Source of the DNA: an uncultured Erysipelotrichaceae bacterium
GTDB taxonomy: Bacteria; Bacillota_I; Bacilli_A; Erysipelotrichales; Erysipelotrichaceae
Length of the DNA stretch: 32,000 nt
Direction: 5' to 3'
Assembly (NCBI GenBank): GCA_942493105.1
Contig: OW818668.1
Location: forward strand, 210,001 to 242,000
Part shown: positions 10,131 through 26,486 of the stretch, one piece after another
Layout: every line of letters starts with the position of its first letter
Position numbering within the stretch: the first letter of the stretch is position 1
Translations under genes and position numbers: made by a program
The notes under the pieces: generated by a model
Database searches by the model: none
The model's input: the letters and a program-made list of their open reading frames with translations, nothing else
Told to the model about the DNA's origin: nothing

Positions 10131-10146
10131 TTTAATATTTATTATC

Positions 10147-10957: not shown

Positions 10958-10994
10958 TTAGCCTTACAACACTACATAAGTCGACTTATTCCAA
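10958..10994 (-). repeat. Module T, solitary copy outside the main array
   Basis: The minus strand reads TTTGGAATAAGTCGACTTATGTAGTGTTGTAAGG, about 10 nt after the stop of the 11005-11421 gene. It matches the T consensus TTGGAAYAGGTCGACTTTTGTAGAGG. Confidence 0.6.
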
Positions 10995-11004
10995 AGAAAA
11001 CACA

Positions 11005-11421
11005 TTATCTTATTTTCTTTTGTTTCCAAGCCACAATAAAATACATCAAAGATAAAACAATACTACCCCCAAGATAGACAAACATCATATACTTTCCATA
11101 AAATGAGGAGTCACCTTGAACACCTTGAAGTTTTAGGCCGATGGCTCCTGAAACATAGGCAATGGAAATAATAGCCAAAACATACGGTGCTAAGGTTTTA
11201 TTCTTTTTGAGGATCAATATATACAATAAGCCTGTCAAAATATTTGAAATCCCAAAGGCACCCAACATCATAAGTCCATCTGGATTAGACTCCATTTGAG
11301 CGAAAGTCGCATTGGCCCAATTGATATTGAAGGTATGTAAGAAACCACGGACCAAATCGAGGACTGCTAAACCCCAAAGATAAATGATATTAAATCTAAG
11401 TACTTTTTCTTGCGTAAACAT
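11005..11421 (-). CDS. Small integral membrane protein (about 4 TM helices)
   Basis: Hydrophobicity pattern and AAGGAG RBS. No family recognised. Confidence 0.6.
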   Translation of the reverse strand: MFTQEKVLRFNIIYLWGLAVLDLVRGFLHTFNINWANATFAQMESNPDGLMMLGAFGISNILTGLLYILILKKNKTLAPYVLAIISIAYVSGAIGLKLQGVQGDSSFYGKYMMFVYLGGSIVLSLMYFIVAWKQKKIR

Positions 11422-11450
11422 AAAGTGCTCCTTTGATCATTATTATAACT

Positions 11451-11520
11451 TGGAATTGTCCTAACTTTGTAGAGTCGTTGCATCATTCAGATATGTATAC
11501 TAAACTCATTTGTTTGTACT
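11451..11520. repeat. Module M copy 2 (more diverged)
   Basis: gtcctaactttgtagagtc...cagatatgtatac aligns with the other M copies. Confidence 0.4.
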
Positions 11521-11665
11521 AATATGATATCTTATAAGGAGACTTCGATTTTCTTACAATACTCCATTTATTAGCAGCAAAATAATATGTTAGAAATCAT
11601 TTTACTTTTTGTTTTCAAACGATAAGTCTACACTGAAAATATATTTATATGAACAGGAAACAAAG

Positions 11666-12256
11666 ATGAAAAACAAACAACAGATTCTTAATCAAGATAG
11701 ACAGGCGTTCATTAACCCACCAAAAAGGATCAACTTCTTTTTAAGAATCGGGATTGGAATCTCAAGAAAAGTCACCGGTAAAGATCTGCTCGTCCCTAAA
11801 CTGCTTGCTTGGGTCCCTAAAGTAGCACTTAGCTCTGGGATACTTGAGTCATTGATCGCTCATGGTGACAAGGATTTAAACACTCGTATGTTAAAACTGG
11901 TCAGAATCCAGGCTTCATTGACGGTTTCTTGCCCATTCTGTATTGATATGAACACTTTTGGATACCAAAAAGATGATATTACTGACGAAGAAATTGAAGT
12001 ACTTAGGGGAAGAAAATCAGTTACTGAGGTTAATTCATTCAGTGAAAAGGAATTGATTGTACTCGATTATGTCAAGCATTTATGTGCCAGTCCCATTAAT
12101 ATGCCAAATGAAGTCTCAACTCGATTAATTCAAAACTTTTCAGAACGAGAGATCGTAATTTTGGCCAGCACAGTTGCACAGGTCGACTACTGGGCAAGAT
12201 TGATACAGGGTCTTGGTGTTCCCCCTGAAGGTTTCATGGATCAATGTGATCTCTAG
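11666..12256 (+). CDS. Carboxymuconolactone decarboxylase / AhpD-like family protein
   Basis: CPFCIDMN CxxC motif in a helical context. Start set at ATG 11666 (MKNKQQ), preceded by AGGAAA. Confidence 0.6.
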   Translation: MKNKQQILNQDRQAFINPPKRINFFLRIGIGISRKVTGKDLLVPKLLAWVPKVALSSGILESLIAHGDKDLNTRMLKLVRIQASLTVSCPFCIDMNTFGYQKDDITDEEIEVLRGRKSVTEVNSFSEKELIVLDYVKHLCASPINMPNEVSTRLIQNFSEREIVILASTVAQVDYWARLIQGLGVPPEGFMDQCDL

Positions 12257-12494
12257 TCACCTTAAGTCAAATTCAAACCAGCACTTCGATTTTGATCTTC
12301 GTCTTCAAAATAATAAGACATGATAAAATTCAGAAATAACTAAATATACTCCTTCTTGCGTAGGGTTAGCTTATTCCTTAACTATACAAAGTCAGAATTG
12401 ATTTCATGACTTTACTACAACCTTAATTATCCAGTTCTCAAACTCACTCGAATATTCTTCATCAGTATTGGATCCTATATGAATTCTTAAAACT

Positions 12495-12517
12495 ACAAAA
12501 AACAGCCGACGCTGTTA
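12495..12517 (-). terminator. Rho-independent terminator overlapping the HAD gene stop codon
   Basis: The minus strand reads TAACAGC-gtcg-GCTGTT followed by TTTTTGT. Confidence 0.7.
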
Positions 12518-13123
12518 GAGAATTCCGTTCTCGGTCAAGACTTGTTCAAGGGCTTTAATATCACCTGTATAAATCGTACCTTTGATTCCACACCGGGCTG
12601 CACCTTCAATGTTGGCCTTCATATCATCAATCATAAAGCACTTAGAACGATCTAGTTTGAATTGTGTTAGAACTGTTTCGTAGAAAGCAGGATCCGGTTT
12701 AGCTTTATGGATATCAGCCGAAATAACGATCCCATCAAAGACATCCAAGGCTCGGATATCTTTTTTATAGGTATGAAATTTTGTGGAGGCATTAGAGAGA
12801 AGATAGAGTTTAATGCCTTTGTTTTTTAATGTGTTCACTAAAGGTATCATAGCTTCATAATAAATATTAGTAACTGGCCATTCTTCAACAATCTGAGTGA
12901 CCAAAGGATGATAGGCTGAATCAACTCTGGCACAAATCGATTGGATGGCTTCGTCGTCAGTGATGGTTCCAAGATCCAGTGACAACCATTCTTGATGAGT
13001 AAAAATCAAAGGTGTTAAGTAATCGATCGTTTTAGTGTCTTGGGTAAAATGGCTCACGATGTGGCGGGGATTGAATTCAAGCAGAACATTCCCCATATCA
13101 AAAAACAATGTTGTTATGCTCAA
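12515..13123 (-). CDS. HAD-superfamily hydrolase (subfamily IA-like)
   Basis: Contains FFDMGNVL (motif I variant), LSNAS (motif II), and K..PD followed by MIDD (motifs III/IV). TTG start with a GGAG RBS. Confidence 0.8.
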   Translation of the reverse strand: MSITTLFFDMGNVLLEFNPRHIVSHFTQDTKTIDYLTPLIFTHQEWLSLDLGTITDDEAIQSICARVDSAYHPLVTQIVEEWPVTNIYYEAMIPLVNTLKNKGIKLYLLSNASTKFHTYKKDIRALDVFDGIVISADIHKAKPDPAFYETVLTQFKLDRSKCFMIDDMKANIEGAARCGIKGTIYTGDIKALEQVLTENGIL

Positions 13124-13257: not shown

Positions 13258-13384
13258 TTATAACTCAGCACGGTCTTAGTGTTCGCTTTACACGAAGCAT
13301 TCCTCATAGTCTAGTGTGAACACTTGAGCATACGCAAACGATTCCCATGGTCGTCCGTTTAAGACCGTAGTAAGCGTTGTCTTT
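13258..13384 (-). repeat. H foldback repeat copy 1 (most diverged; left edge of the array)
   Basis: Reads agcacggtctt...gctttacacgaagc...cccatggtcgtccgtttaagaccgtagt. The central hairpin carries a compensated pair (GCTT/AAGC). Confidence 0.8.
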
Positions 13385-13613
13385 TCTCAGATAAACTGCT
13401 CTTGTTATTCAACTTTCATCATCATTCTGTCTCATTCATTCTACCCTATTTTAGAGCTACAAACATCACTAATTTAGTGTTCATTTTCTTATTATTTCGG
13501 TTCTCTTTTAAAAAGAAATCTCAAAATCCGTTACACATTTGTTACACTTCGGAATTGGTGATTTGTCCACTATAATATTTAACAATGGGACGTAGTTTTC
13601 TCAACACACTCCA
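13385..13613 (-). repeat. Module L copy 1, short form (single GTTACAC box, no 203-bp insert) plus T-like tail
   Basis: Collinear with 21413-21561 and 24990-25138. The single box AATCCGTTACACATTTGTTACACTT is at 13525-13549. The right flank matches the sequence after the second box of the 25.3-kb copy. Confidence 0.8.
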
Positions 13614-14024
13614 CTAATCCGAGTTCGGAATCTCAGTTCGTATAAAGGTAATTTCTCTGACTTGACCATTGAACATACTGTCATTTTCCAAACTAATCTT
13701 TACAGTAAGCTTCTCAGAACTAAATTTGCATACACCCCAGAAGTATCGCTGAGTTAGATTCTCATCGGTCCAAAAACCTACACCTGTATTGTTATTGAAA
13801 ATTACAGTAAAATGATACGTAATATCGTTATAGATAAGTTGTCCAGTTGGGGCGGTATATCCATCACCAGCAATTTCATACACTTCAAACCAAATATCTG
13901 GATCTTCAGATATCCAAATGGCTGAACCAAGATCCGTTGGCTTTTTCCCAGCATATTGGTCAATACAACCTGCTAAAGAAAGAAAGACTGATAAGATCAG
14001 AAGTCTAATGAGTACTTTTTTCAT
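13614..14024 (-). CDS. Lipoprotein (cassette ORF)
   Basis: MKKVLIRLLILSVFLSLAGC signal peptide with lipobox. Start set at ATG 14024, with the AAAGGTGG RBS provided by leader A. Confidence 0.75.
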   Translation of the reverse strand: MKKVLIRLLILSVFLSLAGCIDQYAGKKPTDLGSAIWISEDPDIWFEVYEIAGDGYTAPTGQLIYNDITYHFTVIFNNNTGVGFWTDENLTQRYFWGVCKFSSEKLTVKISLENDSMFNGQVREITFIRTEIPNSD

Positions 14025-14095
14025 GTTACCACCTTTCATTAACTGTCTTATTGAATTTTATTCGACTCTCTCTACAACCACTGAAGTCCAGTTCT
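14025..14095 (-). repeat. Leader module A copy 1 (shared 5'UTR with RBS)
   Basis: Near-identical to 24249-24320. Conservation continues through ATGAAAAAAGTA, the first four codons. Confidence 0.8.
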
Positions 14096-14212
14096 CAGAA
14101 CTCACCACGGTCTTCGTATTCGCTCCAGGTGGAGCATTCCCTCTGACCGAGTAACAACATATTAGCTCTCGTAAATGAGTCCCACGGTCATCCGTTTAAG
14201 ACCGTGGTCAGA
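14096..14212 (-). repeat. H foldback repeat copy 2 (core subtype II)
   Basis: Reads cagaactcaccacggtcttcgtattcgctccaggtggagcattcc...cccacggtcatccgtttaagaccgtggtcag. The central core is gaccgagtaacaacatattag instead of ctagtatgaacgcttaggcac. Confidence 0.9.
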
Positions 14213-14320
14213 GGCGATGTACTCATGCAACTTGGACATTGCGACTCGACTAGAGTTGGCCTATTCCGGGTAACCTTGAATTTACTCAGAAATTCAAATA
14301 TCTCTGAACGTACTAAGTAT

Positions 14321-15163
14321 TTATTTACGCAAATTCTCAATTTTGCTTGGAGCTCTATCAAGTAACAGTTGTCCAATCTTTAGCTTTTCATATCCAGAGT
14401 CTATCAGTCTCTGATTATTCTTATTAAGGCCTTCTGTAATTTCGTCGATCCCCTTTAGATGATAATCTATAGAAGCAATGACATCATTAATAACAGGCAG
14501 AAACTGATTAATTTTCAATATATCTCTCACATTTTCTACTCTGCTTTTAAACTCGTTAGCAACTATTAAATAGGCATCCTTGCCTGAAATCTTGTAATTA
14601 TCGACTGTTTCATTAAAAATCCAAAACTTAGCAATCACTTGTGGTACCCTATCCAAATAGTCCGATATAAATGCTTCTTCACCATCAATTGAATAAGTTG
14701 CCTCAAGCCTAGTTATGTTCCCTCCAAGATCAGTAAGTATAAGCATTGTTTTTTGATTTTGACCATCAAAACTAAAATCAGGCAATTTTTCAAATGTTAC
14801 CATCACTGCTGTGCTATCAATGATCTTGTCAATAAACTGATCTGGGGTAAAAGTTTCCCCATAAGCAATTGATACTGGTTTCAGTATTGCATTAGGTTTA
14901 ATGGTATCCTTAACTACAACACTTAATGTTACTACACCCTTACCAGTTCCATATGAAACCACATAATCACCAGGAATTTCCATATTTGTTGGATTGTCAA
15001 TTTCCACTTTGCTTTTAGGTGAAACTACATAATCCAACGGACTAAAAGGTTCACCAGCCTCCAAAATGATGTTGCTTTGACTTAATTCAATTTTCTGTGC
15101 TACACAAGCTGAAATCGAAAACATAACAAGCATTAGCAATAAATAAGTAGATAAAGATTTCAT
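14321..15163 (-). CDS. Lipoprotein with two Ig-like (DUF5011-type pattern) segments (cassette ORF)
   Basis: MKSLSTYLLLMLVMFSISAC lipobox, repeated ..G(E)xFxPxxxV.. segments, GGAGGGGG RBS. Confidence 0.75.
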   Translation of the reverse strand: MKSLSTYLLLMLVMFSISACVAQKIELSQSNIILEAGEPFSPLDYVVSPKSKVEIDNPTNMEIPGDYVVSYGTGKGVVTLSVVVKDTIKPNAILKPVSIAYGETFTPDQFIDKIIDSTAVMVTFEKLPDFSFDGQNQKTMLILTDLGGNITRLEATYSIDGEEAFISDYLDRVPQVIAKFWIFNETVDNYKISGKDAYLIVANEFKSRVENVRDILKINQFLPVINDVIASIDYHLKGIDEITEGLNKNNQRLIDSGYEKLKIGQLLLDRAPSKIENLRK

Positions 15164-15290
15164 AATCCCCCTCCGTTTTATTCAGTTATATAGTTAGTAT
15201 ATCAAATTAACCACTACTAACAACGCGTATAATTTACATAAACAGAATTTGATTGCACTGAAAACTATATATATTAAGGAGTGCTTATTT

Positions 15291-15353
15291 TATGTATAGT
15301 CATTATTTCAGTCACATATGAATACTCAATTCGATTGTTTGCATGATTATCCC
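15291..15353. repeat. Module M copy 4
   Basis: tgtatagtcattatttcagtcacatatgaatactcaattcgattgtttgcatgattatccc aligns with 13178-13243. Confidence 0.65.
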
Positions 15354-15433
15354 ACGAAGCATTTTCAAAAATACTCCTCAGGAATATTGTCATCTAGGTA
15401 ATAAGCTCATCATATCTATATGATGATCTATTC

Positions 15434-15535
15434 ATTCACTCTGTCAATCCGGAACACTTAGGGAAGCGTTCTGTATGGACGAGTATCAACTTAAGGGCTG
15501 GGTGAGTTCGTGTCTTTCGTGATGACTGGACATGC
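15434..15535 (-). repeat. Decayed H repeat (subtype II-like)
   Basis: aagcgttctgtatggacgagtatcaac...cgtgatgactgg is collinear with copy 3 (gagcgttcatcgtgaccgagtaacaat...ccgtggtatg). The arms are no longer complementary. Confidence 0.35.
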
Positions 15536-15615
15536 AGTTTGAAGCACTAGAATTATTATGCAGTATGCAAAACAAATGATATACATTAACAATACAGACT
15601 GATCACTTCAATATC

Positions 15616-15644
15616 TTGACAACGGTCATGCATAGTGTAATTAT
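15616..15644 (+). promoter_or_regulatory. Sigma-A-type promoter candidate for the plus-strand SHOCT gene
   Basis: TTGACA (15616-15621), 17-nt spacer, TGT-AATTAT (extended -10-like). About 30 nt upstream of the GGAGG RBS. Confidence 0.5.
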
Positions 15645-15672
15645 GTCCTTAAACATATTTGGAGGTACACAC

Positions 15673-15936
15673 ATGAGTGAATGGGACTTTCTTTGGGGAT
15701 TAAAAGGAAAAGAACTAGAAGATGCTATGTCAACTGGCATGGACCAATTTGATCGCGATTATTTAAGTAAATCCAAACATTTAAATAATGAGAATAAAGC
15801 TATAAATGAACAGCATAGGCTTGCGTTAAAAGCAGAGTGGGAAAGTCTCAAGCAACTAAGAGATAGTGGTGCCATAACAATGGAAGACTTTAGAATGAGA
15901 AAAAGAGCATTATTCCCAATCAAAAAGCAAAAATAG
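15673..15936 (+). CDS. SHOCT-domain small protein (plus-strand cassette ORF)
   Basis: The C-terminal LKQLRDSGAITMEDFRMRKRALF matches the SHOCT pattern. Start set at ATG 15673, 7 nt after GGAGG. Confidence 0.6.
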   Translation: MSEWDFLWGLKGKELEDAMSTGMDQFDRDYLSKSKHLNNENKAINEQHRLALKAEWESLKQLRDSGAITMEDFRMRKRALFPIKKQK

Positions 15937-16000
15937 AAACCGGTAGCCATAGAACACGAACATATACTCTCGTTGTTAGCGACATATTATCTTGAGTTCT

Positions 16001-16117
16001 TAGAACTCACCACAGCCTTTATATTCGCTCCAAGTTGAGCGTTCATCGTGACCGAGTAACAATATATTAGTTCTAGTAATCGAGTCATACGGTCGTCCGT
16101 TTAGGACCGTGGTATGA
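16001..16117 (-). repeat. H foldback repeat copy 3 (core subtype II, diverged arms)
   Basis: tagaactcaccacagcctttatattcgctccaagttgagcgttc...catacggtcgtccgtttaggaccgtggtatg. Confidence 0.85.
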
Positions 16118-16337
16118 TCAGTCTCATGCTCATACACCTTAACAATGAGCTCACTTAAAGTCAGCCTATTTCATTTATGCCAAATACAAATTTAGACTGC
16201 TTTTGTACAAGAAAATGACCAACTAACTTCAAATGTTGAATAAATTCCGTATGATATACTTGATGTGAAATTGCACCATTACCAATCTCATAATTATGAA
16301 TTTTGGAGTGCTTTTATCCAATAGCGGAGGAAATATC

Positions 16338-16607
16338 ATGACGACACTAGAATCATATTGCTTTAGAATCTACCATGAGATATATAAAAGAGAATTGAGC
16401 AATTATGTAAAGCAATGGACAGCAAAACACAACCATATTCCAGAATTTAAGTATGATTCTTGGAGTCGATACGCACAAGAAGAGGCACTAAACCAATCAA
16501 TAGAAAGAGTAATCCAAGAATTTCCATTAATTGATCCGAATTTGATTACAGAAACTATACGAAAAATCCACTTAGAGTGGGATTCAGATATAATTCTAGT
16601 TGACTAG
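16338..16607 (+). CDS. Hypothetical small protein (plus-strand cassette ORF)
   Basis: ATG 16338 lies 7 nt after GGAGGAAA. 89 aa, no family recognised. Confidence 0.5.
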   Translation: MTTLESYCFRIYHEIYKRELSNYVKQWTAKHNHIPEFKYDSWSRYAQEEALNQSIERVIQEFPLIDPNLITETIRKIHLEWDSDIILVD

Positions 16608-16635
16608 ACTTTAATTATTGTGTACATATAAAACA

Positions 16636-16701
16636 GATCTGAGTTGTCTTGTACTCATACAACTTTAGCATTGTGGCTCTACAGAAGACGACTTATACCA
16701 A
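16636..16701 (-). repeat. Module T copy with only the last few nt of H attached (H-less junction remnant)
   Basis: gatctgag + ttgtcttgtactcatacaactttagcattgtggctctacagaagacgacttataccaa parallels 31760-31823 but lacks the body of H. Confidence 0.6.
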
Positions 16702-16726
16702 GTTGTTGATTATTCAAACTACTCGT

Positions 16727-17134
16727 TTATTCTATTTTGACATCTTGCGCCAGTTTTGAAATCTGATCTGAAGTCACTTTTCCTTCACGAGCTAGACTAT
16801 CCAATTCATTCTTCGTCAAATACGCATCATTACACAATTCAAGCGCCTCATCATATGTCATCTCTACATAATCTTTTCTTTCGACAAAATAATTCTTTAA
16901 AATGAATTCTATTCCAAATACCTCACAAGCTAGTGTGATTACACCATTCTTGGCTGCGTTCTCAATGAACTCATTAATTGTCTTACCTTGGCTCCGATAC
17001 AATTCGATGCCATCCTCATCGACTGGGTCTCTTGTTAAAAATGTCGCTATTAATAATTCTGCCACATCTTCATCTCTCATGATCATATATAATATGAACT
17101 TTTGTAAACTGAACACCAATTCTGATTTTGGCAT
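16727..17134 (-). CDS. Hypothetical cytoplasmic protein (cassette ORF)
   Basis: Start set at ATG 17134 (MPKSELVF), 6 nt after AAAGGGAG. 135 aa, acidic and helical. Confidence 0.55.
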   Translation of the reverse strand: MPKSELVFSLQKFILYMIMRDEDVAELLIATFLTRDPVDEDGIELYRSQGKTINEFIENAAKNGVITLACEVFGIEFILKNYFVERKDYVEMTYDEALELCNDAYLTKNELDSLAREGKVTSDQISKLAQDVKIE

Positions 17135-17305
17135 TTCATCTCCCTTTACTTGATGGTTCTCTCTCAACCTATATTGAACACGACTCCTTTTCAACGACAT
17201 TTAGAGCTAGTGTCAATTTATGTGCTTTTCTGCAAATATCTAAATACCCAACCTGGTTTGCCCACTACGTTGTTCCAAAGTATAATGGAATGGTCCATCT
17301 TTGAA

Positions 17306-17351
17306 CTCATACAACTTAACATTGTGTCTATACAAAAGTCGACCTATTCCA
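17306..17351 (-). repeat. Module T copy
   Basis: ctcatacaacttaacattgtgtctatacaaaagtcgacctattcca. Confidence 0.75.
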
Positions 17352-17521
17352 GTTTTACTGGTTGATCCTTATAAAGGAACTTTATAAGGTATATCAGACC
17401 ATCTCTATTACGTGCAGTTTGACTTTGGTTGATTCCCATGTACTCTTAACCAACTTTATCACCTGATCTCATCAAACCTTACCAAATAAGAAAAATCCTG
17501 TATGTACAGAAGTCAATAAAG

Positions 17522-18301
17522 CTAAATATCAACTAGATTAATCATATTAAGGTTTGTACTATCATATAGATACTCACCATGCCGAACAATCAATCTTCGA
17601 ATACATCGATGCAACCAAGCTTCTTCTATTTGGCTAAGTGTATGTTCTGATTTCTTCTCCACTTTTCTAGCTGAGAACTCGTCACCTTTTACAGAAGTCC
17701 AAGTCCCTAGTTGGACAAGAATAGCAGAATCAATACACAATTTTTGCCCTATTCGGTTTCTTCTAGGTGTTCGGCCACTAATGTTATCTCCGAACTCATC
17801 TTCAATGACCGTCAAATAGTAATACCCAAAGTTTAGAATGTGTTCTTTACCTTGTAATACTCCCATATAACGTTCAATTACTTTTTGAAGTTTGATGTTT
17901 GTTTTAAAATTCGCGTGAGCTATTGGAAATTCTCTTAAATTTCTTATCGCATAACCTTCGCATGTAATTGTCGATTTACAGTAAATGTTGCCTGAGAGGT
18001 ATTTAATATTTGGATCGAGTTCTTCATAAACATATCCCTTTTTATAGAATCTTATACTATCTTCGCCATACTCGAGGTCATACTGATAATACCAATCAGC
18101 GAAAATAGAGTTTGCATTTGCCTCAATCTTCGCAACGTTCTCAAGTGGTTCTTTTAGATGAATGATTATTCTTTTGTCTTTAAAAGTTATTGTAAAATCC
18201 GGATAATCGAAAGACTTTTCTATAAATGATTGGATATTCACTGTCTTGTTAACATCAATGTCATAAAGAATGCTTTTAATTCTTGGTTTACTTTGGTCCA
18301 T
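17522..18301 (-). CDS. Hypothetical protein, 259 aa (cassette ORF)
   Basis: Long uninterrupted ORF co-oriented with the array. Weak RBS, no family recognised. Confidence 0.55.
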   Translation of the reverse strand: MDQSKPRIKSILYDIDVNKTVNIQSFIEKSFDYPDFTITFKDKRIIIHLKEPLENVAKIEANANSIFADWYYQYDLEYGEDSIRFYKKGYVYEELDPNIKYLSGNIYCKSTITCEGYAIRNLREFPIAHANFKTNIKLQKVIERYMGVLQGKEHILNFGYYYLTVIEDEFGDNISGRTPRRNRIGQKLCIDSAILVQLGTWTSVKGDEFSARKVEKKSEHTLSQIEEAWLHRCIRRLIVRHGEYLYDSTNLNMINLVDI

Positions 18302-18402
18302 TTAGTTACTCATTTTCGAAATGCTTCCTGTTTTATATAAAAGTTCTGATTTGCTCATATGCCCCGATACACTCTTTTAAGAGTAGCAAGCTTGCCCCTA
18401 AT

Positions 18403-18459
18403 TTGTTCCAAAACAGAATAGAGTTTTAAGCTCGACAACAACCCTATATATTCAGTTCT
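18403..18459 (-). repeat. Leader module C copy 1
   Basis: The minus strand reads GAACTGAATATATAGGGTTGTTGTCGAGCTTAAAACTCTATTCTGTTTTGGAACAA. It matches 28022-28078. Confidence 0.7.
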
Positions 18460-18566
18460 TAGAACTCACCACAGTCTTCGTATTCGCTCCAGGTGGAGCA
18501 TTCACCACATTCTAGTATGAACGCTTAGGCACCCAATCGTGTCCCACGGTCGTCCGCTTAAGACCT
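18460..18566 (-). repeat. H foldback repeat copy 4 (3' arm truncated/decayed)
   Basis: tagaactcaccacagtcttcgtattcgctccaggtggagcattc...ttaggcacccaatcgtgtcccacggtcgtccgcttaagacct. Confidence 0.85.
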
Positions 18567-18577
18567 TGTTTTAAGTG

Positions 18578-18625
18578 CTCATTCAAGGTTAACATTGTGC
18601 CTCTACAAAAGTCGACCTATTCCAA
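18578..18625 (-). repeat. Module T copy
   Basis: ctcattcaaggttaacattgtgcctctacaaaagtcgacctattccaa, 38 nt after the stop of the FRG gene. Confidence 0.8.
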
Positions 18626-18663
18626 TAGTTAACCTAATCCACTTAGATACTTATAAAATAGTA

Positions 18664-19569
18664 CTAGAAATTCAATAATTCACCTTTATTAATATTTGAT
18701 ATCAAAATATATTCAGCAATGCTTTGAATATCTGGAAAAAGTCGTAAGTTAGAGTAGTTCATATTATCCAATAGTCGAAGCAATTCATTTCTTACTTTCT
18801 TGTCAATTCTTATTGTTATATATTCTGCTTTCTTAATAATTTCATTTTGCGCATCCTCATTAAGAATTGAGCAAGGGATACTGAAAAGCCCTTGTTGCGC
18901 TATAAGTCGAGGGTTGCTAGCGTTGCACTCATAAAATAATAATCCATCAGGATTTGTCTTAACATCCTCAATAATTCCTATGTTTTTTAGTTTTGTGCTC
19001 CTTGCTTTCAACTCTTCAATTAGACTCTGTTTATTTATAATGGACTTTATGAATTTATGGTACTCTTCAATGAATTCAGACCCAGATTGCATATTACCAT
19101 GAGTCAAACCACCATAAGATCTGTTTATTAAAATGTGATCATCTAGATTGGTATAGAATAATCTATAACCATCTAAAGGACATTCACTTTGGTTGATAGC
19201 AAAATAAAGAGCAACAAAAGGATCACGTGTCCAGTCAACAAGTCTTGTAGGGAGTCCAAAATGCTGTGCATATGCCACTATATCTAGTAGATCAAGGTTA
19301 CCGTTTAGCATTGCTGAAGCATATTTTTTAAAGTCATAGAGTAAAGAAAACTCTAAATATGATACATCCTTGTACTGAAAATTTGACGAACGATTATTTA
19401 CTCTATTGATTGTTGGCTTTAATTGGCTTAAATCTGATACACCACGAAAAACTAATTTGCGATTTTTTGCAGCTAACAAAAGGTGGTTTAATAACAAATC
19501 TGCTGTTGTATATTCTTCTTGATTGAAAACATTCCCAGAATGTCTTTCTGCTTTTGAATGATTATTCAT
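18664..19569 (-). CDS. FRG-domain protein (cassette ORF)
   Basis: Contains VFRGVSD, AQHFGLPTRLVDWTRDPFVALYFA and NPRLIAQQGLFS, the FRG-domain signature blocks. AAAGGAG RBS. Confidence 0.75.
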   Translation of the reverse strand: MNNHSKAERHSGNVFNQEEYTTADLLLNHLLLAAKNRKLVFRGVSDLSQLKPTINRVNNRSSNFQYKDVSYLEFSLLYDFKKYASAMLNGNLDLLDIVAYAQHFGLPTRLVDWTRDPFVALYFAINQSECPLDGYRLFYTNLDDHILINRSYGGLTHGNMQSGSEFIEEYHKFIKSIINKQSLIEELKARSTKLKNIGIIEDVKTNPDGLLFYECNASNPRLIAQQGLFSIPCSILNEDAQNEIIKKAEYITIRIDKKVRNELLRLLDNMNYSNLRLFPDIQSIAEYILISNINKGELLNF

Positions 19570-19693
19570 ATAAGCTCCTTTTTGAATTATACTTCTGTTA
19601 CAAATTTAAACTATTGGTTGGTAATGTATACAAAACTGAATGATATACCCCATAAATTGTTTTAAAATAGAATGTTAATGATCCATATTTTGT

Positions 19694-19775
19694 ACTTAAA
19701 CAAGTTTATCATTTCGACTCCATAATAGTCGATTTATTCCAATATTGCGTTTCATCAAAAGCTAACTTATTCCAA
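19694..19775 (-). repeat. Module T copy plus a second partial T start abutting the HNH gene stop
   Basis: One copy is tcatttcgactccataatagtcgatttattccaa (19694-19742). A partial copy, ctaacttattccaa (19761-19775), sits 3 nt from the stop at 19779. Confidence 0.6.
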
Positions 19776-19778
19776 GGA

Positions 19779-21269
19779 TTAACTTGTTTTTCTATATCTT
19801 CTTCTAACTAAACCTCTAGTTTTGATTTCATTTACTAAAGTCATAGGACTCATACCAAAGGATTTTGCTACTTGTAAGATTGACAATTCTGATGACATAT
19901 ATGATTCAACTGCCTCACTATATTTTTCTATTAAGAGAACATTCCTTTTCTTGTCAACCTTATGCGGTCTATAAATCTGTCTATTTAGACCTTTCTTTTT
20001 TAGTTCACTACTTAGTAAGTTCTCGCTAATATGATGTTGCTTTGAAACTTCACTTCTTGAGAGTCTAGTTGACATGTAATGCTGAATTGCTGCTTCAAGT
20101 CTAATTGCCTTATCCTCTTTATTAATCTCTATTGTCTTAGGTTTGTCTACTCTAATTTTGGTGTTAATAGCTTCAGGATATTTCTTTCGTACATAGTTAT
20201 ATACAGTAGCAAAGCTTACTCCAAACTCTTCAGCAACTTCCTTATAAGATTTTGAAGAGCTCACATAGCTAAAAGCCACATTTTCAATGAATTTCTCATC
20301 TCGTACTCTTTTGTTTCTTTCACTATAAACAAACTTATTATTATCTTGATCTTTCACAGTTTCAACTTGAGAGGATTGGAATGAATCATCTTCTCGGTCT
20401 GTTAGATTATCTATTTCTTCGCTCTTATTAAGTTGGCTTTTCTTTACACTATTAAATACAGTTACACTGCTTATTCCAAACTCCTTCCCTACTTGCTCAT
20501 ATGTTAATGATGAATTCAAATATCTTTGTTTTGCGGATTCAATTACAGATTCATCTATAAAATTTGGTCTACCTAACTTCTTTCCATTCTTCTTAAGTTC
20601 ATTTAGTGAGTCTGATGTTCTATTTGAAATATTACTTCTCTCAAGTTCTGCAATAATATTAATAAAATGATTCACTATGTCCTGAACAATATCATAATTT
20701 ATTCTTTCCATAGTATTTACAGAATCAGTTTTCCATTTAAATAATCTTTTGTAGAACATTCTTAACAAACCTGCTGTAGTTGAGATGCTAACATGTGTAT
20801 GCCCAAAATGGAATATTAACTCAAGGTCACCAAAGAATTCATCTATTGATTGATATACTTTATCGACTTGATTTGGCGATAAACTCAAAGAATATATATC
20901 GTCAACAAACTCATTTCCATAAATTCTTTTATACTCGTCCAACCCTTTGTATGTCCAAAAATTATCTCTTCTCTTGCTACTGTATGCATTTATCCAATCC
21001 CACATTATTTCGTTATCTTTAACATCAGGGGCTTCAATATGACAAGATTTACATAACAGTACATAGTTGCTTGGGATATCTAGTCCTCCCATAGCAAAAG
21101 GTATAATATGACATTTCTGAATTTTGCGATGTTTTGTAGACACTTCTCCACATCTCCAACAATGACTACTTGCTTTGGCAATCTCAAGATGCGTGTATAG
21201 CCACTCTATTTTATCAGTCCAATATGAACTAATGTAAACCTCAGTTGTTTTTTGATTATTTCTTTTCAC
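19779..21269 (-). CDS. HNH endonuclease fused to a resolvase-like linker and four helix-turn-helix repeats
   Basis: The HNH core is CWRCG..CHIIPFAMGG..NYVLLCKSCH. It is followed by ELERSNISNRTSDSLNELKKNGKKLGRP (serine-recombinase helix-E/GRP-linker-like) and four HTH units (LTYEQVGKEFGISSVTVFN, KSYKEVAEEFGVSFATVYN, LSRSEVSKQHHISENLL, LSILQVAKSFGMSPMTLVN). Start moved to GTG 21269, 5 nt after AAAGGGGGA, because the track start at 21344 lies inside repeat H. Confidence 0.8.
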   Translation of the reverse strand: MKRNNQKTTEVYISSYWTDKIEWLYTHLEIAKASSHCWRCGEVSTKHRKIQKCHIIPFAMGGLDIPSNYVLLCKSCHIEAPDVKDNEIMWDWINAYSSKRRDNFWTYKGLDEYKRIYGNEFVDDIYSLSLSPNQVDKVYQSIDEFFGDLELIFHFGHTHVSISTTAGLLRMFYKRLFKWKTDSVNTMERINYDIVQDIVNHFINIIAELERSNISNRTSDSLNELKKNGKKLGRPNFIDESVIESAKQRYLNSSLTYEQVGKEFGISSVTVFNSVKKSQLNKSEEIDNLTDREDDSFQSSQVETVKDQDNNKFVYSERNKRVRDEKFIENVAFSYVSSSKSYKEVAEEFGVSFATVYNYVRKKYPEAINTKIRVDKPKTIEINKEDKAIRLEAAIQHYMSTRLSRSEVSKQHHISENLLSSELKKKGLNRQIYRPHKVDKKRNVLLIEKYSEAVESYMSSELSILQVAKSFGMSPMTLVNEIKTRGLVRRRYRKTS

Positions 21270-21295
21270 AATATCCCCCTTTATGTCTCTAGTTA

Positions 21296-21412
21296 CATAA
21301 CGCACCACGGTCTTTGTATTCGCTCCAGGTGGAGCATTCCCCATAGTCTAGTATGAACGCTTAGGCACACCCCATCGTGTCTCACGGTCGTCCGTTTAAG
21401 ACCGTAGTCAGC
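21296..21412 (-). repeat. H foldback repeat copy 5 (L-linked)
   Basis: cataacgcaccacggtctttgtattcgctccaggtggagcattcc...ctcacggtcgtccgtttaagaccgtagtcagcg. Confidence 0.9.
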
Positions 21413-21847
21413 GTGGTCTTTTCTCAGTCAAACTGCTCTTGTTATTCAACTTTCAACATCATTCTATCTCATTCATTCTACCCTATTTTAAAGCTATATA
21501 TATCACTAATTATGTGTTCATTTTCTTATTATTTCGGTTCTCTTTTAAAAAGAAATCTCAAAATCCGTTACACTTTTGTTACACTTGGACAAAGTGACCT
21601 GCAAAAAAGCCTTATAGAATAAGGCTTCGTGAAGTCATGGTGCCATCACCGAGAGCAGAATTTATGCGTATTTTTAGGTGTCAGTTATGATAAAAGGCTT
21701 AAAAAACAAGCCTTTTAGTCGATTTTTATCGAATTAAGTGTGATTAAATCGGAATTATATAGGTAATCCGTTACACATTTGTTACACTTCGATGTGATCA
21801 AACTGTCCACCAACAATCGTCTGCAAAGGGACTTCATTTTTCTTAAC
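21413..21847 (-). repeat. Module L copy 2, long form (two GTTACAC boxes 203 bp apart) plus T-like tail
   Basis: Near-identical to 24990-25440. Boxes are at 21562-21586 and 21765-21789, with internal hairpins at about 21606-21630 and 21693-21717. Confidence 0.85.
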
Positions 21848-22342
21848 TTACCTCATTCTTTTGCGTTTCACTTTATCGACTTGATAAAATAGTGAAATCA
21901 GAAAAATGGCATATGAAATTCCAATCAATGGTCGAAACACAAACCATCCGGTGATTATCCATAAACTAGAAAAAATCACAGTTGCTAAAAACCCAAGTGC
22001 GAATCCCCAGTATGGAAGTAACAGATTTAACGGAACAATCCCCAGCTTATCAAGGTAAAACATTCTCCATTTTCTTTCTCCTCTTTTCTTATAGTTCTCT
22101 TTATCGTGTTTTCTCAGATATTTTGAAATTAGTGGAAAGTATAGTGTGTGTCCTCCTACATAATGAATTACTGGAAACGCAATAATGAGCATTATTATTA
22201 TGAAAAATTCTTCTAGGCTCATCATCTTACTGTTACCACGCTTTCTGATTAAGTTCAAAGTCAAATGATATTGGTCTGCTTCGACTTTTATGGAGAGGTT
22301 TTGTCCCCACCCATCACTATTCCCATTATCCCTATTAATCAT
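21848..22342 (-). CDS. Small membrane protein, about 3 TM (cassette ORF; start uncertain)
   Basis: The track start at 22342 lies in module B (MINRDNGN...). An alternative start, ATG 22225 (MMSLEEFF), lies just before the first TM helix. Confidence 0.6.
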   Translation of the reverse strand: MINRDNGNSDGWGQNLSIKVEADQYHLTLNLIRKRGNSKMMSLEEFFIIIMLIIAFPVIHYVGGHTLYFPLISKYLRKHDKENYKKRGERKWRMFYLDKLGIVPLNLLLPYWGFALGFLATVIFSSLWIITGWFVFRPLIGISYAIFLISLFYQVDKVKRKRMR

Positions 22343-22372
22343 CCGTTAGTCTACCTGCAATTCATCTATTGC
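22321..22372 (-). repeat. Module B copy 1
   Basis: Minus strand: GCAATAGATGAATTGCAGGTAGACTAACGGATGATTAATAGGGATAATGGGA. Confidence 0.7.
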
Positions 22373-22489
22373 CAGAACTCACCACGGTCTTCGTATTCGC
22401 TCCACATGGAGCATTCCCCACAGTCTAATATGAACGCTTAGGCACTGCCAATCGTGTCCCCAGTCGGCCATTTAAGACCGTGGTCTGAG
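22373..22489 (-). repeat. H foldback repeat copy 6
   Basis: cagaactcaccacggtcttcgtattcgctccacatggagcattcc...ccccagtcggccatttaagaccgtggtctgag. Confidence 0.9.
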
Positions 22490-22574
22490 TCAACATTACC
22501 TCAAGAAATCAAGTCTCTCAACTTGACATTATGAAGTCACTAATAATTTCATAACATTTTCTTTTTCTCATGTT

Positions 22575-23312
22575 TTATCTCAATTTACAAATTTTATATA
22601 TGAGTTCATGAATAATGAAGATAATCAATCCAGTCGTAAGAATCCAGTTTGTGACTGTTATTGTGTTTTGCTGAGTATCAAAATATGATACTAATATAAA
22701 AACTACAACAGATACACATAGATATGTTTTAAACGTAAATTCTGAGAAGTAGTCTTGCTTTTTCAATGGGACATCTCTATCAGAAATGTAATTTTTCATC
22801 CCTCTAAATCTATGCCACGTTATCCTATTGGTTCTGTGCAGAATTTTCATTTGTAAAATTAGTTCTATAAAACTGGACAAAAAGAGCATAACAACAAAGA
22901 ATATCAATACATAAACTTTTGTAATAGTGAACTCAAATAGAACAAGCTCAAATGCCTTAATCCAGATTATAAAAAGGAAGATCATGGTTAATAATTCTAG
23001 TGCTTGCAGATATTTCTCAAGCATCTTCAAGGTCATGACATCTCTTGGTTCTTGGTTCAGCAAGTTATTCGTTAAGTGCGATGCAACATCAAGAATGAGT
23101 AGATACTTAACAAACACTAAAATAAATAACCCTGCAACTAACAACAATATCACAAGATACTTTGCTAATGCATCAAGCTTTAATACATCTTCTAACGAAA
23201 ACGCAACAATCAAAATTATCGCGAAGTTTAGGAAGAGAAGCAGATTTACTTTCTTTATCTCAATACCGAGCTCCATTTGCTTTTCTTCCTCTATGACTGT
23301 TAATTGTTCCAA
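22575..23312 (-). CDS. Polytopic membrane protein, 245 aa (cassette ORF)
   Basis: TTG start 5 nt after GAGGAGGGG. Multiple hydrophobic helices, no family recognised. Confidence 0.65.
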   Translation of the reverse strand: MEQLTVIEEEKQMELGIEIKKVNLLLFLNFAIILIVAFSLEDVLKLDALAKYLVILLLVAGLFILVFVKYLLILDVASHLTNNLLNQEPRDVMTLKMLEKYLQALELLTMIFLFIIWIKAFELVLFEFTITKVYVLIFFVVMLFLSSFIELILQMKILHRTNRITWHRFRGMKNYISDRDVPLKKQDYFSEFTFKTYLCVSVVVFILVSYFDTQQNTITVTNWILTTGLIIFIIHELIYKICKLR

Positions 23313-23430
23313 AATTCCCCTCCTCTTTCACCCAGTAATGATCGGTTTTGGTTTGCTTAATACCTAAATAGTAAGTTGGTCTGTTCCAACTTTTGTGGGG
23401 ATCTTTCGGATGATCTTGATTATTATTCCC

Positions 23431-23478
23431 ATTATCCCTTTTCTTCATCTATTAGTCTACCTTCAATTCATCTAATCT
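23431..23478 (-). repeat. Module B copy 2
   Basis: Minus strand: AGATTAGATGAATTGAAGGTAGACTAATAGATGAAGAAAAGGGATAATGGGA. Confidence 0.8.
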
Positions 23479-23597
23479 CAGAACGCACCACGGTCTTCGT
23501 TTTCGCTTCATGTGGAGCATTCTCCGCACATCTAGTATGAACGCTTAGGCACTATCAATCGTGTCCCACGGTGAGTTTGCCAAGACCGTGGTCTGAG
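23479..23597 (-). repeat. H foldback repeat copy 7 (loop allele GAGTTTGCCA)
   Basis: cagaacgcaccacggtcttcgttttcgcttcatgtggagcattc...cccacggtgagtttgccaagaccgtggtctgag. Confidence 0.9.
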
Positions 23598-23633
23598 TCC
23601 GGATTGTTATGCGTATTCAACTGAAGATCTAGA

Positions 23634-24248
23634 TTACAAAAAGAGTATATAAACGATAGAAAATACAATCCAAACTGTGATCATTATAATCCATGGCTTA
23701 TCACTCTTTGAAGATTGTGCGATGGATGTGTCTTTATCCAGATTGGCAGCCTTAAAGATGATTTTATGCTGAGCTAGGACCACTACCACACTGATGATCA
23801 GATTAAGCAGATAAACTATGGAAAATAAAGTCGCACCTAAAATATAAACAGAAATCTCAACCGGTATATTCGGTTCAGTGTAAGAGTGTAAAATGGCGCT
23901 GAATGTGAAAAGCAAGATAGAGTACGTGATAAAGAGATAAGGTGGAATCAGAAGTAAGATCGAAATTAACTTTTTATTGGTGTTATTCTTAGCCACCATT
24001 ATGATATTCAAAAAAACAACAACAAATGCTAACATCAGTAACACAAGAATCAAATTATGGACGAAGAGTCCGAAGTCATTTAAAAAAGGGTGCTGATCAA
24101 AGATGATTCTAAACTCTTCTTGAAGTCCTAGATCATCCGGGAAAGGTACTAAAGCCGCGACTCCTGCTGAACCAATTAGCAATTGAAATGATAACTGAAT
24201 AATCGACAGGTCCAAGGCAATGGTATTGATCAGTGCTACTTTTTTCAT
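23634..24248 (-). CDS. Polytopic membrane protein, 204 aa (cassette ORF)
   Basis: ATG with the AAAGGGTGG RBS from leader A. Starts MKKV, then about 5 hydrophobic helices. Confidence 0.7.
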   Translation of the reverse strand: MKKVALINTIALDLSIIQLSFQLLIGSAGVAALVPFPDDLGLQEEFRIIFDQHPFLNDFGLFVHNLILVLLMLAFVVVFLNIIMVAKNNTNKKLISILLLIPPYLFITYSILLFTFSAILHSYTEPNIPVEISVYILGATLFSIVYLLNLIISVVVVLAQHKIIFKAANLDKDTSIAQSSKSDKPWIIMITVWIVFSIVYILFL

Positions 24249-24320
24249 GTTACCACCCTTTCATTAAATGTCTTATCGAGTTTTATTCGACTCTCCCTAC
24301 AACCACTGCTGTTCTATTCA
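24249..24320 (-). repeat. Leader module A copy 2
   Basis: Minus strand: TGAATAGAACAGCAGTGGTTGTAGGGAGAGTCGAATAAAACTCGATAAGACATTTAATGAAAGGGTGGTAAC, followed by ATGAAAAAAGTA. Confidence 0.8.
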
Positions 24321-24439
24321 CAGAACGCACCACGGTCTTCATATTCGCTCCATGTGGAGCATTCCCCACAAGCTAGTATGAAATGCTTAGGCACAGGTAA
24401 TCGTGTCACACGGTGAGTTTGCCAAGACCGTGGTCTGAG
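24321..24439 (-). repeat. H foldback repeat copy 8
   Basis: cagaacgcaccacggtcttcatattcgctccatgtggagcattcc...cacacggtgagtttgccaagaccgtggtctgag. Confidence 0.9.
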
Positions 24440-24503
24440 TTAGTGTTATCTGAAGATCCAATAAAGTCTTGGACTTCACTTTTCTCTTCACCCCAAAAAC
24501 TAT

Positions 24504-24761
24504 TTACAAATTTACAAAATATTCAAATAAACGGGTGATGCTGTATGTGTATATTCCTAATGCAAACCCAATTTTGATAAGATCTTTCTCTCTCTGAAAT
24601 AAACCGCCAATCAACAAAGATGTAGCATATAATAAAGTGGAAACATTGAATAGCATTAAATATGGTTCAAAATCACTGAAATAAAATGTACCAACTATAC
24701 TTATACAAGCAACAATAATTGTCAATAATCTTAGTGTGAATACAATTTTCCTTTTTACCAC
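24504..24761 (-). CDS. Small membrane protein, 85 aa (cassette ORF)
   Basis: GTG start 8 nt after AGGGG. Contains 2-3 hydrophobic helices. Confidence 0.55.
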   Translation of the reverse strand: MVKRKIVFTLRLLTIIVACISIVGTFYFSDFEPYLMLFNVSTLLYATSLLIGGLFQREKDLIKIGFALGIYTYSITRLFEYFVNL

Positions 24762-24822
24762 AATTTATGACCCCTAACTTTCACTTTCTTGTTCAAGGAG
24801 TAAATCTTCATCAACGCTATCC

Positions 24823-24872
24823 TCATTATCCCTTTTCTATACCGGTTAGTCTACCATCAACTCAACTAATCA
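24823..24872 (-). repeat. Module B copy 3 (first ATG replaced by ATA)
   Basis: Minus strand: TGATTAGTTGAGTTGATGGTAGACTAACCGGTATAGAAAAGGGATAATGAGG. Confidence 0.7.
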
Positions 24873-24989
24873 CAGTACGCACCACGGTCTTCGTATTCGC
24901 TCCATGTGGAGCATTCCCACTCATCTAGTATTAACGCTTAGGCACATGCTATCGTGTCCCACGGTCGACTATTTAAGACCGTGGTCAGC
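24873..24989 (-). repeat. H foldback repeat copy 9 (L-linked)
   Basis: cagtacgcaccacggtcttcgtattcgctccatgtggagcattcc...cccacggtcgactatttaagaccgtggtcagcg. Confidence 0.9.
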
Positions 24990-25440
24990 GTTGTCTTTTC
25001 TCAGTCAAACTGCTCTCGTTATTCAACTTTCATCATCATTCTGTCTCATTCATTCTACCCTATTTTAGAGCTATATATATCACTAATTTAGTGTTCATTT
25101 TCTTATTATTTAGGTTCTCTTTTAAAAAGAAATCTCAAAATCCGTTACACTTTTGTTACACTTGGACAAAGTGACCTGCAAAAAAGCCTTATAGAATAAG
25201 GCTTCGTGAAGTCATGGTGCCATCACCGAGAGCAGAATTTATGCGTATATTTAGGTGTCAGTTATGATAAAAGGCTTAAAAAACAAGCCTTTTAGTCGAT
25301 TTTTATCGAATTAAGTGTGATTAAATCGGAATAAAATAGGAAATCCGTTACACATTTGTTACACTTTGGAATTGGCTATTTCTACCACTATGACATGCTC
25401 AAAGGATCATCGCATTTTCTCAATACACCACAGTTCGTAA
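24990..25440 (-). repeat. Module L copy 3, long form
   Basis: Boxes at 25139-25163 and 25342-25366, 203 bp apart. The sequence after the second box (ttggaattggctatttctaccactat) matches the flank of the single box at 13550-13575. Confidence 0.85.
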
Positions 25441-25520
25441 TCGCATTAATGAAGTACGGGGCACATTCATATATTGTTGCCGAATACACTGAATAACTTT
25501 GTCAAATAGATGAAATTTTA

Positions 25521-26057
25521 TTACCATTTGTAAGGAAAATACTTACTGACAAATTCAGAGAACGAATCCCCAACCGAGTCTAGATTGAAGTCATATAGAT
25601 ATAGATAAGCGATTGAGTTTCTCGTATCGGACACGGCAATCATCCCAAAATCATGGGGATAATCTCCATAGCCCTGATCATCACTGATGATCCTGAAATC
25701 AAAATCTCCGACACTAAAGGTTGTTTGGGGGAAAATTTGATCTGAGACATAGCTGTTGGGTTCATTTAGAAAATAGAAAGTATCATCCAATTTTGCCTTC
25801 TCATCCAGATAAGTATCCTGATCATACGTCACAACCAGCAATAGAGTATCCATCTCCCAAATAAAGATGATATCTATTCTGTAGTGATGATAAATATCTT
25901 TGTATTGAGGAAGTGAATCGATCTCAGGCATAACCGACTTCGATGATCCAGTATTTAGACGGTGCCATGAATAAGAAATTTCGCTCTTGTCTTGAAGAGG
26001 GCTGTAACAACCAGTTAATAGAATCAGAACAATGATTGAAAGAAATATATTTTTCAT
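25521..26057 (-). CDS. Lipoprotein, 178 aa (cassette ORF)
   Basis: MKNIFLSIIVLILLTGC lipobox, GGTGGA RBS. Confidence 0.7.
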   Translation of the reverse strand: MKNIFLSIIVLILLTGCYSPLQDKSEISYSWHRLNTGSSKSVMPEIDSLPQYKDIYHHYRIDIIFIWEMDTLLLVVTYDQDTYLDEKAKLDDTFYFLNEPNSYVSDQIFPQTTFSVGDFDFRIISDDQGYGDYPHDFGMIAVSDTRNSIAYLYLYDFNLDSVGDSFSEFVSKYFPYKW

Positions 26058-26430: not shown

Positions 26431-26486
26431 TCAATATTCAACGAAAGTATTAGGAATATCTTATGTAACCACTTCCATTTAGTCAT

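Follow-up and report, generated by a model that had tools for sequence, protein, structure and literature searches.

Which kind of element separates the small orphan genes of this Erysipelotrichaceae island, and does it act as a DNA site at which genes are exchanged or as a signal in the transcript? The question is raised by a stretch of 223 bases (positions 18403-18625, minus strand) within 32,000 nt of contig OW818668.1 from an uncultured Erysipelotrichaceae bacterium; this whole piece of analysed DNA is called the window in the following. Among platforms dedicated to gene capture, integrons are the textbook case, and they are not known from the Gram-positive lineage (Firmicutes). An earlier note on this DNA had described the stretch as formally analogous to the paired core sites that delimit integron cassettes. 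Here, we show that it is one copy of a real, conserved and previously undescribed modular spacer between unrelated orphan genes; full-text literature searches on repeats of this kind and on accretion islands gave no description of such a unit. The junction resembles an integron junction in layout but fails the tests of integron membership that were run. Our tentative reading, which we hold to be possible but stop short of calling probable, is that of a transcribed expression adapter that also gives portable homology for the shuffling of cassettes.

The island and its related loci

The left 10 kb of the window (G+C content about 35%) are occupied by ordinary housekeeping genes and contain none of the repeats. 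From about 10.3 kb to the right end some 24 small ORFs follow that are separated by repeated intergenic DNA, and all but three of them lie on the minus strand. Around the inverted ones (11609-12256, 15616-15936 and 16296-16607, plus strand) the surrounding modules keep their common orientation. Most of the cassette proteins belong to no Pfam family (30 proteins scanned). Outside the island, ORF 38-1084 (plus strand) carries three tandem repeats of 357 nt (119 aa) that are 70-74% identical and unrelated to the junction.

Related loci were obtained by exact-pattern scans with the most conserved repeat, which gave matches only in uncultured Erysipelotrichaceae and in metagenome contigs of freshwater type. 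They comprise six genome and eight metagenome loci (given L numbers here), and 13 contigs carry module H, the core element described below. Relatives at 68% protein identity that share the conserved MarR/flavodoxin flank possess neither the array nor H; the junction family is restricted to a narrow clade of Erysipelotrichaceae. Neither the unit nor leader A nor the att flank had a relative in the collections of plasmids, phages and viruses. Scanning viral contigs with module, repeat and att patterns returned either nothing or chance GTAAC-rich matches only, and a GTGTAAC repeat seen in two viral contigs was rejected as a relative, being a case of chance GTAAC-rich iterons.

A gene for a recombinase or integrase was found neither in the window nor in the related loci (about 115 kb), and the 4-6 kb preceding the start of the array in L002, L004 and L003 contained none either. 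A 521-aa ORF of the window (19779-21344, minus strand) begins inside an H copy. Its product has an HNH nuclease motif, an E-helix like that of resolvases and four helix-turn-helix repeats, but no serine-recombinase catalytic domain. As the enzyme acting on H this protein was rejected and is considered cargo, since its only homologue (40% identical) sits in an element without H, which belongs to a 26%-GC organism and carries a tyrosine-recombinase trio and a type I restriction system. In L003 the array comes directly after genes (1-2462, plus strand) for a small membrane protein and an RHS-repeat toxin whose C-terminal domain is hydrophobic, which hints that the cassettes may include immunity genes.

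Anatomy and edges of the composite junction

The stretch 18403-18625 is a composite of four parts, namely T (51 nt), H (117 nt), the H tail with leader C (49 nt) and an end module that we name E (Table 1). Read on the minus strand, the full T is TTGGAATAGGTCGACTTTTGTAGAGGCACAATGTTAACCTTGAATGAGCAC and starts 38 nt past the stop codon of the FRG gene. The H copy is partly degenerate, its 5' end reading AAACAAGGTCTT and not GACCACGGTCTT, and E reads TTGGAACAAATTAGGGGCAAGC. Behind it, an ORF of 18 codons (18302-18358, minus strand) terminates in a TAA that directly precedes the start codon (ATG) of the gene for the 259-aa cassette protein, an arrangement that may serve translational coupling downstream of E.

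Table 1. Positions of junction modules, neighbouring ORFs and repeats (window coordinates unless a locus is named)
Feature	Position	Strand	Remarks
Upstream cassette ORF	18664-19569	-	FRG-domain protein, 301 aa
Module T	18575-18625	-	5' part is the 33-nt TTGGAATAGGTCGACTTTTGTAGAGGCACAATG, 3' part is TTAACCTTGAATGAGCAC
TTGGAAT opening T	18625-18619	-	Direct reading
Module H	18461-18577	-	Core conserved element; covariance-model match of 120.8 bits
H tail and leader C	18412-18460	-	Tail closes the palindrome AGTTCTaAGAACT (18466-18454); leader C is GGGTTGTTGTCGAGCTTAAAACTCTATTCTGTT
Module E	18388-18411	-	TTGGAACAAATTAGGGGCAAGCTT; distal edge of the unit, with a Shine-Dalgarno-like G run inside
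TTGGAAC in E	18411-18405	-	Direct reading
Downstream cassette ORF	17522-18301	-	259 aa; no homologue in a 5.8-billion-protein database
Second complete T-H-leader C-E composite in the window	28005-28252	-	T overlaps the last codons of ORF 28230-28646
All 14 H copies (span)	13260-31768	-	Covariance model; listed in the next two rows
H copies 1-7	13260-13378, 14097-14215, 16002-16120, 18461-18577, 21297-21415, 22374-22491, 23480-23599	-	Covariance model
H copies 8-14	24322-24441, 24874-24992, 26314-26432, 28080-28198, 28599-28717, 30856-30974, 31650-31768	-	Covariance model
H copy resembling a neighbour	28599-28717	-	97.5% identical to H 28080-28198, 519 nt away (mean 78%); identity ends exactly at the H edges
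Leader A	26923-26956	-	Promoter-like: TAGACT, 17 nt, GATAAT
Other leader A copies	22322-22355, 23428-23461, 24822-24855, 29226-29259, 30805-30838	-	Repeat family
300-nt repeat (att scar)	21540-21839	-	Other copies 25117-25416 and 27251-27550; partial copy 13400-13551
Related copies of the att scar	L002 5158-5310; L004 3760-3905; L012 7181-7326		

Besides the two copies of the window, the T-H-leader C composite is present once each in L003, L011 and L012, and these five copies from four contigs were aligned together with flanks of 90 nt. Conservation begins on the left at TGGAATAGGTCGAC and ends in four of the five copies about 12 nt past TTTGGAAC; in the fifth it ceases earlier, within leader C. 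The discrete conserved unit between cassette-specific DNA that the earlier note had proposed is thus borne out by edges that recur, other contigs included. Its 5' edge lies where it had been expected, at TGGAAT of T, and its 3' edge has to be moved beyond TTGGAAC into the longer module E. The sequences and coordinates quoted before for T, leader C and TTGGAAY were found as such on the minus strand, including TTGGAAC at 18405, 28024, 23306, 17272 and 26217. The same is true for the distances from stop codon to T, which amount to 3 nt (19779, 31827 and near 27007, where the upstream ORF has 55 codons), 10 nt (11005), 25 nt (16727) and 38 nt (18664), and for the copy of T that encodes a C-terminal GIGRL, as ORF 28230-28646 ends with ...GGIGRLP*.

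Other elements of that description could not be retained. The inverted repeat GAATAG/CTATTC that was thought to bound the unit is a 6-mer at chance level (15 such pairs exist within 261 nt), and it is missing from the second window copy, which has CAATTG. Junctions with leader A were said to lack the distal TTGGAAC, yet some of them carry a distal TTGGAAY (window 26902-26896; L002, L004 and L007). As to the frequency of this heptamer, 24 sites on both strands compared with 16.6 +/- 4.3 expected represent a mild excess only. On the gene-sense strand of the array it is about threefold, with 16 sites (11 of them intergenic) against some 5.6 expected when scaled from the both-strand estimate, but most of the 11 intergenic sites sit inside copies of T or E and are therefore not independent events. 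A long-range pairing between T and leader C, considered here in addition, was rejected, since the five composite copies show no covariation for it.

T-H-leader C-E is one fairly rare combination among the junction types. Further combinations include H-leader A, T-H-leader B and junctions made up of a single T, H or leader A; many junctions lack H or lack T entirely. Within the window, as within each related locus, the copies of H, T and the leaders all share a single strand. A decayed junction at 12376-12440 has lost the body of H and retains only its terminal bases, together with the tail and a stretch similar to leader C; not all module copies are thus maintained.

Module T, the leaders and module E

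In the window 14 copies of H, nine of T and three of leader C were counted. Together with the related loci T amounts to 21 copies, all in one orientation, and two thirds of them (14 of 21) overlap the stop codon of an ORF of at least 120 codons or fall within 70 nt of it. The first 33 nt of T also occur as a head-to-tail pair with a period of 33 nt, and this was observed in two different genomes, at 19775-19706 of the window and in L014 (13114-13244, plus strand, corresponding to about 1-131 in array orientation).

Leader A is represented by 21 copies as well, six from the window and 15 from related loci. GGTAGACTA and GGGATAATG are conserved in it, while the 17-nt spacer between them is variable, and genuine Shine-Dalgarno and ATG signals are found downstream. 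It is placed before unrelated ORFs, either after the H tail or after an att scar, and looks like a portable promoter of the sigma-70 type. Leaders B and C were likewise considered as promoters and rejected, their hexamers being inconsistent. Both look like variants of one sequence to which also the "G" module (CAGTGGGTTTAGTCGAGAGCC) belongs, and the latter can stand in for T before H. Module E comes after either leader C or leader A; in L002 its G run is located 8 nt upstream of an ATG.

Module H

In addition to the 14 copies of the window, all of them on the minus strand and none within positions 1-13000, a covariance-model search yielded about 28 more copies of H in the 13 related contigs, always co-oriented with the local genes, which makes about 42 in total. 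Their mean identity is about 80%, with 22 columns invariant and about 50 nearly so. Within a locus the copies are 78% identical and between loci 80%. Since the former value does not exceed the latter, H copies are not homogenised and each copy is conserved independently; concerted evolution was rejected as the source of conservation for this reason. This element of about 117 nt is conserved and undescribed and, judging from the invariant columns of its roughly 42 copies and from the missing excess of identity within loci, it is apparently under selection copy by copy. No Rfam 15 family reached its gathering threshold anywhere in the window, and for 18300-18700 and 26250-28800 even a cutoff of E <= 10 gave no match. 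Coding function was rejected as well, because two ORFs merely begin inside H (MGNAPPGANTKTVVR...), a conserved start is not present and the variable sites would be non-synonymous loop positions.

The ends of H are inverted repeats of 11 bp, ACCACGGTCTT and AAGACCGTGGT. A 9-mer, GACCGTGGT, is found three times, once inverted and twice direct, the third copy lying just inside the 5' end where it could form a local hairpin instead. H further contains a GCTCC-N4-GGAGC hairpin, long invariant single-stranded blocks and the palindrome AGTTCTnAGAACT at its 3' end. Its four variable patches coincide with the apical loops of four possible hairpins, and in the two structures tested 90-94% of the cells pair. 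In one helix a consensus G-U is replaced by A-U in four copies, and one compensatory change is added. Nevertheless, covariation is weak: there are three to four compensatory cells with scores in a range for which the tool warns that relatedness alone can produce them, the all-pairs scan gave only signals at noise level, and the GCTCC/GGAGC hairpin shows transitions (C-A) that break its pairing. Copies with a truncated 5' side retain the 3' GACCGTGGTG although its pairing partner has been lost, which indicates a sequence-specific rather than a structural constraint. In at least eight junctions H stands upstream of the leader A promoter, so that it is not the 5' UTR of the next gene there.

The tRNA-Thr gene and the 300-nt repeat

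ARAGORN detected no tRNA or tmRNA gene in the window. In L002, L004 and L012, by comparison, the array begins directly after a tRNA-Thr gene of the same orientation, and the last 16 nt of the tRNA-Thr(GGT) of L004 and L012 (CTCGGTGATGGCACCA) are repeated three times in the window. They are part of a 300-nt repeat (Table 1), in which a pair of GTGTAAC direct repeats, a terminator hairpin, this tRNA-Thr 3' end, a second hairpin and a second GTGTAAC pair follow each other and which is bounded by two GTGTAACAAAWGTGTAACGG repeats. The tRNA remnant is followed by the same terminator hairpin and GTGTAACAAAAGTGTAACGG repeat as are found behind the intact tRNA. The 300-nt repeat is an att scar, of the classic type that repeated integrase-mediated insertion leaves at tRNA 3' ends and that has been described for other tRNA-linked islands; it shows that site-specific insertion at tRNA-Thr has repeatedly enlarged the island. 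The units between the scars measure 2-8 kb. Within the scar, a stretch containing TTGACA and the tRNA remnant lies between two terminator-like hairpins (21640-21720 and the equivalents in the other 300-nt repeats); it could give rise to a small transcript.

Cassette breakpoints and exchange between copies

Two cassettes that occur in different contexts, neither of which is flanked by both T and E, allow a comparison of breakpoints. The first (209 aa, 30869-31767 of the window) is 94.5% identical to its counterpart in L002. Its upstream H is no closer to that of L002 than any two H copies are to each other; identity starts right after GTGGTGCGYTCT, covers the ORF and, with 46 of 48 nt, the 5' half of the H that follows, and then ends. 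The second cassette, with two ORFs, is 96-98% identical between L003 and L012. Here the identical stretch begins no more than 3 nt from where leader A ends and breaks off at the first base of H, and the flanking copies of leader A and H are only about 76-82% identical (downstream H about 82%). In these two cases the breakpoints are thus the 3' end of H, its 5' start and the end of leader A, and no TTGGAAY is found at them. In both cassettes homology ends where a module begins or ends, and the point is not a fixed one.

Exchange apparently also takes place between the modules themselves. The H pair with 97.5% identity looks like the result of a recent gene conversion or of a duplication confined to H, and the alleles of the H loops occur in all combinations across copies and genomes. 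From both observations it follows that H copies exchange sequence, and such an exchange could blur the co-inheritance of an H copy with its cassette. The ORF enclosed by this pair encodes a zinc ribbon, starts in one H and ends in T.

Possible functions of the junction

The reading that we tentatively suggest regards the junction as a cis-acting expression adapter that would be transcribed together with the cassettes. T would cap the upstream ORF and H would fold into an intercistronic or 3'-UTR element with several hairpins. The leaders would then restart expression, leader A as a sigma-70-type promoter and the promoterless leader C with E by means of its Shine-Dalgarno-like run. As the same modules flank unrelated ORFs, they would also serve as portable homology, and homologous recombination and gene conversion between junction copies may reshuffle both cassettes and modules. 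The whole island, finally, would grow through integrase-mediated tandem insertion at the tRNA-Thr 3' end. In favour of this reading are the copy-by-copy conservation of H, the position of its variable patches in possible hairpin loops, the promoter-like leader A, the location of T and E at the boundaries of genes, the traces of recombination between copies and, for the growth of the island, the array starts and the att scar at tRNA-Thr. Several observations speak against such an adapter. One orientation kept even beside three inverted ORFs fits DNA recombination sites better than expression signals, and plain homologous recombination inside the modules would not give the edge-exact identity of the L003/L012 cassette without later conversion. 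The weak covariation, the C-A mismatches, the 3' 9-mer without partner and the position of H upstream of the leader A promoter also do not fit well.

The uniform orientation of about 42 H, 21 T and the other modules is one reason to consider, as the main though rather unlikely alternative, that T-H (with E) is an attC-like site at which a recombinase encoded elsewhere excises and inserts cassettes at a fixed point. Crossover would occur at TTGGAAY or at the 3' end of H (behind GTTCT), and the array would be an integron-like platform for gene capture. Like attC sites, T adjoins or overlaps stop codons; H is bounded by inverted repeats of 11 bp, orphan cassettes without Pfam family remind of chromosomal integrons, breakpoints fall exactly at module edges and the att scars show that site-specific recombination has operated in these islands. 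Whether a cassette carries its own site along was answered differently by the two cassettes: the 5' half of the downstream H has moved together with the one shared with L002, whereas in L003/L012 neither the downstream H nor the upstream leader A moves with the cassette, and gene conversion could mask co-inheritance. Against an attC-like site stand also the lack of a recombinase gene in the window and in about 115 kb of related loci, the absence of RYYYAAC/GTTRRRY boxes, the sequence conservation of the H interior, which is unlike that of attC, the many junctions without H or T and the promoters that cassettes have of their own. An "empty" site, that is a leader C-T junction, was not seen in about 115 kb of related sequence. 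In its most specific form, T-H (with E) would be the functional equivalent of attC in a Gram-positive integron-like system, served in trans by a recombinase other than IntI and supplying promoters and ribosome-binding leaders to the captured ORF; we consider this version unlikely.

It is improbable that H is a MITE-like non-autonomous transposable element that has spread between the genes of the island and of which the other modules are passengers or decay products. H does possess terminal inverted repeats of 11 bp, it is a discrete unit with homology breakpoints at both edges, truncated copies exist, and its limitation to a narrow clade, with absence from the relatives at 68% protein identity, would fit. 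However, no target-site duplication was found flanking H, and its copies are not dispersed in both orientations as a MITE would be: all have the same orientation and are confined to few arrays, positions 1-13000 of the window being free of them. Moreover, a divergence of about 20% with invariant blocks kept is not the pattern of a recent burst, and polymorphism of presence and absence was not seen.

We also regard it as improbable that H works as double-stranded DNA, namely as a platform to which a silencer, a regulator or an accessory factor of an integrase would bind through the three GACCGTGGT 9-mers and the palindromes. The arrangement of these 9-mers, the conservation of the 3' copy even without pairing partner, the palindrome AGTTCTnAGAACT and the location upstream of leader A in at least eight junctions are all in line with protein binding. 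Against this, leader A is found without H as well, beside the att scar, four different inverted repeats would require several proteins, and no candidate protein is known. Finally, functionless leftovers of repeated local duplication would account for decayed fragments such as the tail-leader C remnant at 12376-12440 and the truncated H copies, but this is very improbable as invariant blocks persist among copies that have diverged by about 20%, while flanking housekeeping DNA is 71-77% identical between genomes.

Comparison with known repeat systems

The array shares with chromosomal integron arrays (the VCRs of Vibrio and, as arrays without integrase, CALINs) its length and its mostly orphan, co-oriented cassettes. 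As with attC, a repeat of about 120 nt with inverted-repeat bounds follows each cassette in one orientation and starts at or near stop codons, and all sites are in direct orientation. Unlike in integrons, where an IntI-type tyrosine recombinase and attI stand beside the array, no recombinase ORF was found in the window or upstream of the L002, L004 and L003 arrays. The core consensus of R'' (RYYYAAC) and R' (GTTRRRY) around a variable centre is not present either; H ends with ACCACGGTCTT and AAGACCGTGGT and its centre is conserved. The junction is modular (T, H, leaders, E), many junctions lack H, and cassettes come with a promoter module of their own. What survives of the analogy drawn in the earlier note is the architecture; neither an integrase nearby nor an attC consensus was found, and the bounding inverted repeat has to be given up.

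BIMEs/REP of enterobacteria, BOX of pneumococcus and NIMEs of Neisseria are mosaics of modules with hairpins that may affect the fate of mRNA and promote recombination. The elements described here are likewise intergenic, built of few modules in variable combinations and hairpin-forming. Those families are spread over the genome in both orientations, in contrast with the present one that is found only in tRNA-Thr islands, has one orientation and includes a promoter module.

The rAID-1 arrays of Bacteroidales consist of recombinase-associated immunity genes which are small and have repetitive intergenic sequences "reminiscent of integrons", and a conserved XerD-family recombinase is found adjacent to them (Ross et al., bioRxiv 10.1101/471110). 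Small genes with repeated spacers and a link to interbacterial toxins (the L003 array follows the RHS toxin) are common to both. Sequence similarity between the two is not known. In contrast, no XerD-family recombinase heads the arrays described here, which start at tRNA-Thr or after the RHS toxin; the phylum is a different one, and recognisable immunity families were not seen among the cassettes, most of which belong to no Pfam family.

Islands that target tRNA genes and grow by tandem accretion have been described as tycheposons (bioRxiv 10.1101/2020.12.28.424599) and CIMEs (PMC5704250). Partial tRNA copies scattered in an island that starts at an intact tRNA gene correspond to these, and repeated 3' ends of the target tRNA do occur at boundaries. 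This likeness concerns the island with its 300-nt att scar and not the T-H junction, and neither an integrase gene (window and about 115 kb of related loci) nor a replication module was found here.

Biological significance

Islands of Erysipelotrichaceae thus display an integron-like layout, with orphan cassettes in one orientation and a repeat of about 120 nt with inverted ends after the ORFs. The repeat family itself is unrelated to integrons; it is modular, includes a promoter and is located at a tRNA-Thr integration hot spot. As recombination sites, its members would mean that cassette capture was invented independently; as RNA or expression modules, they would offer a clear case of portable promoters and UTRs that are reused for newly acquired orphan genes. 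Under either reading H remains a conserved and undescribed element of about 117 nt, and the RHS toxin linked to one of the arrays is suggestive of a role in conflicts between bacteria.
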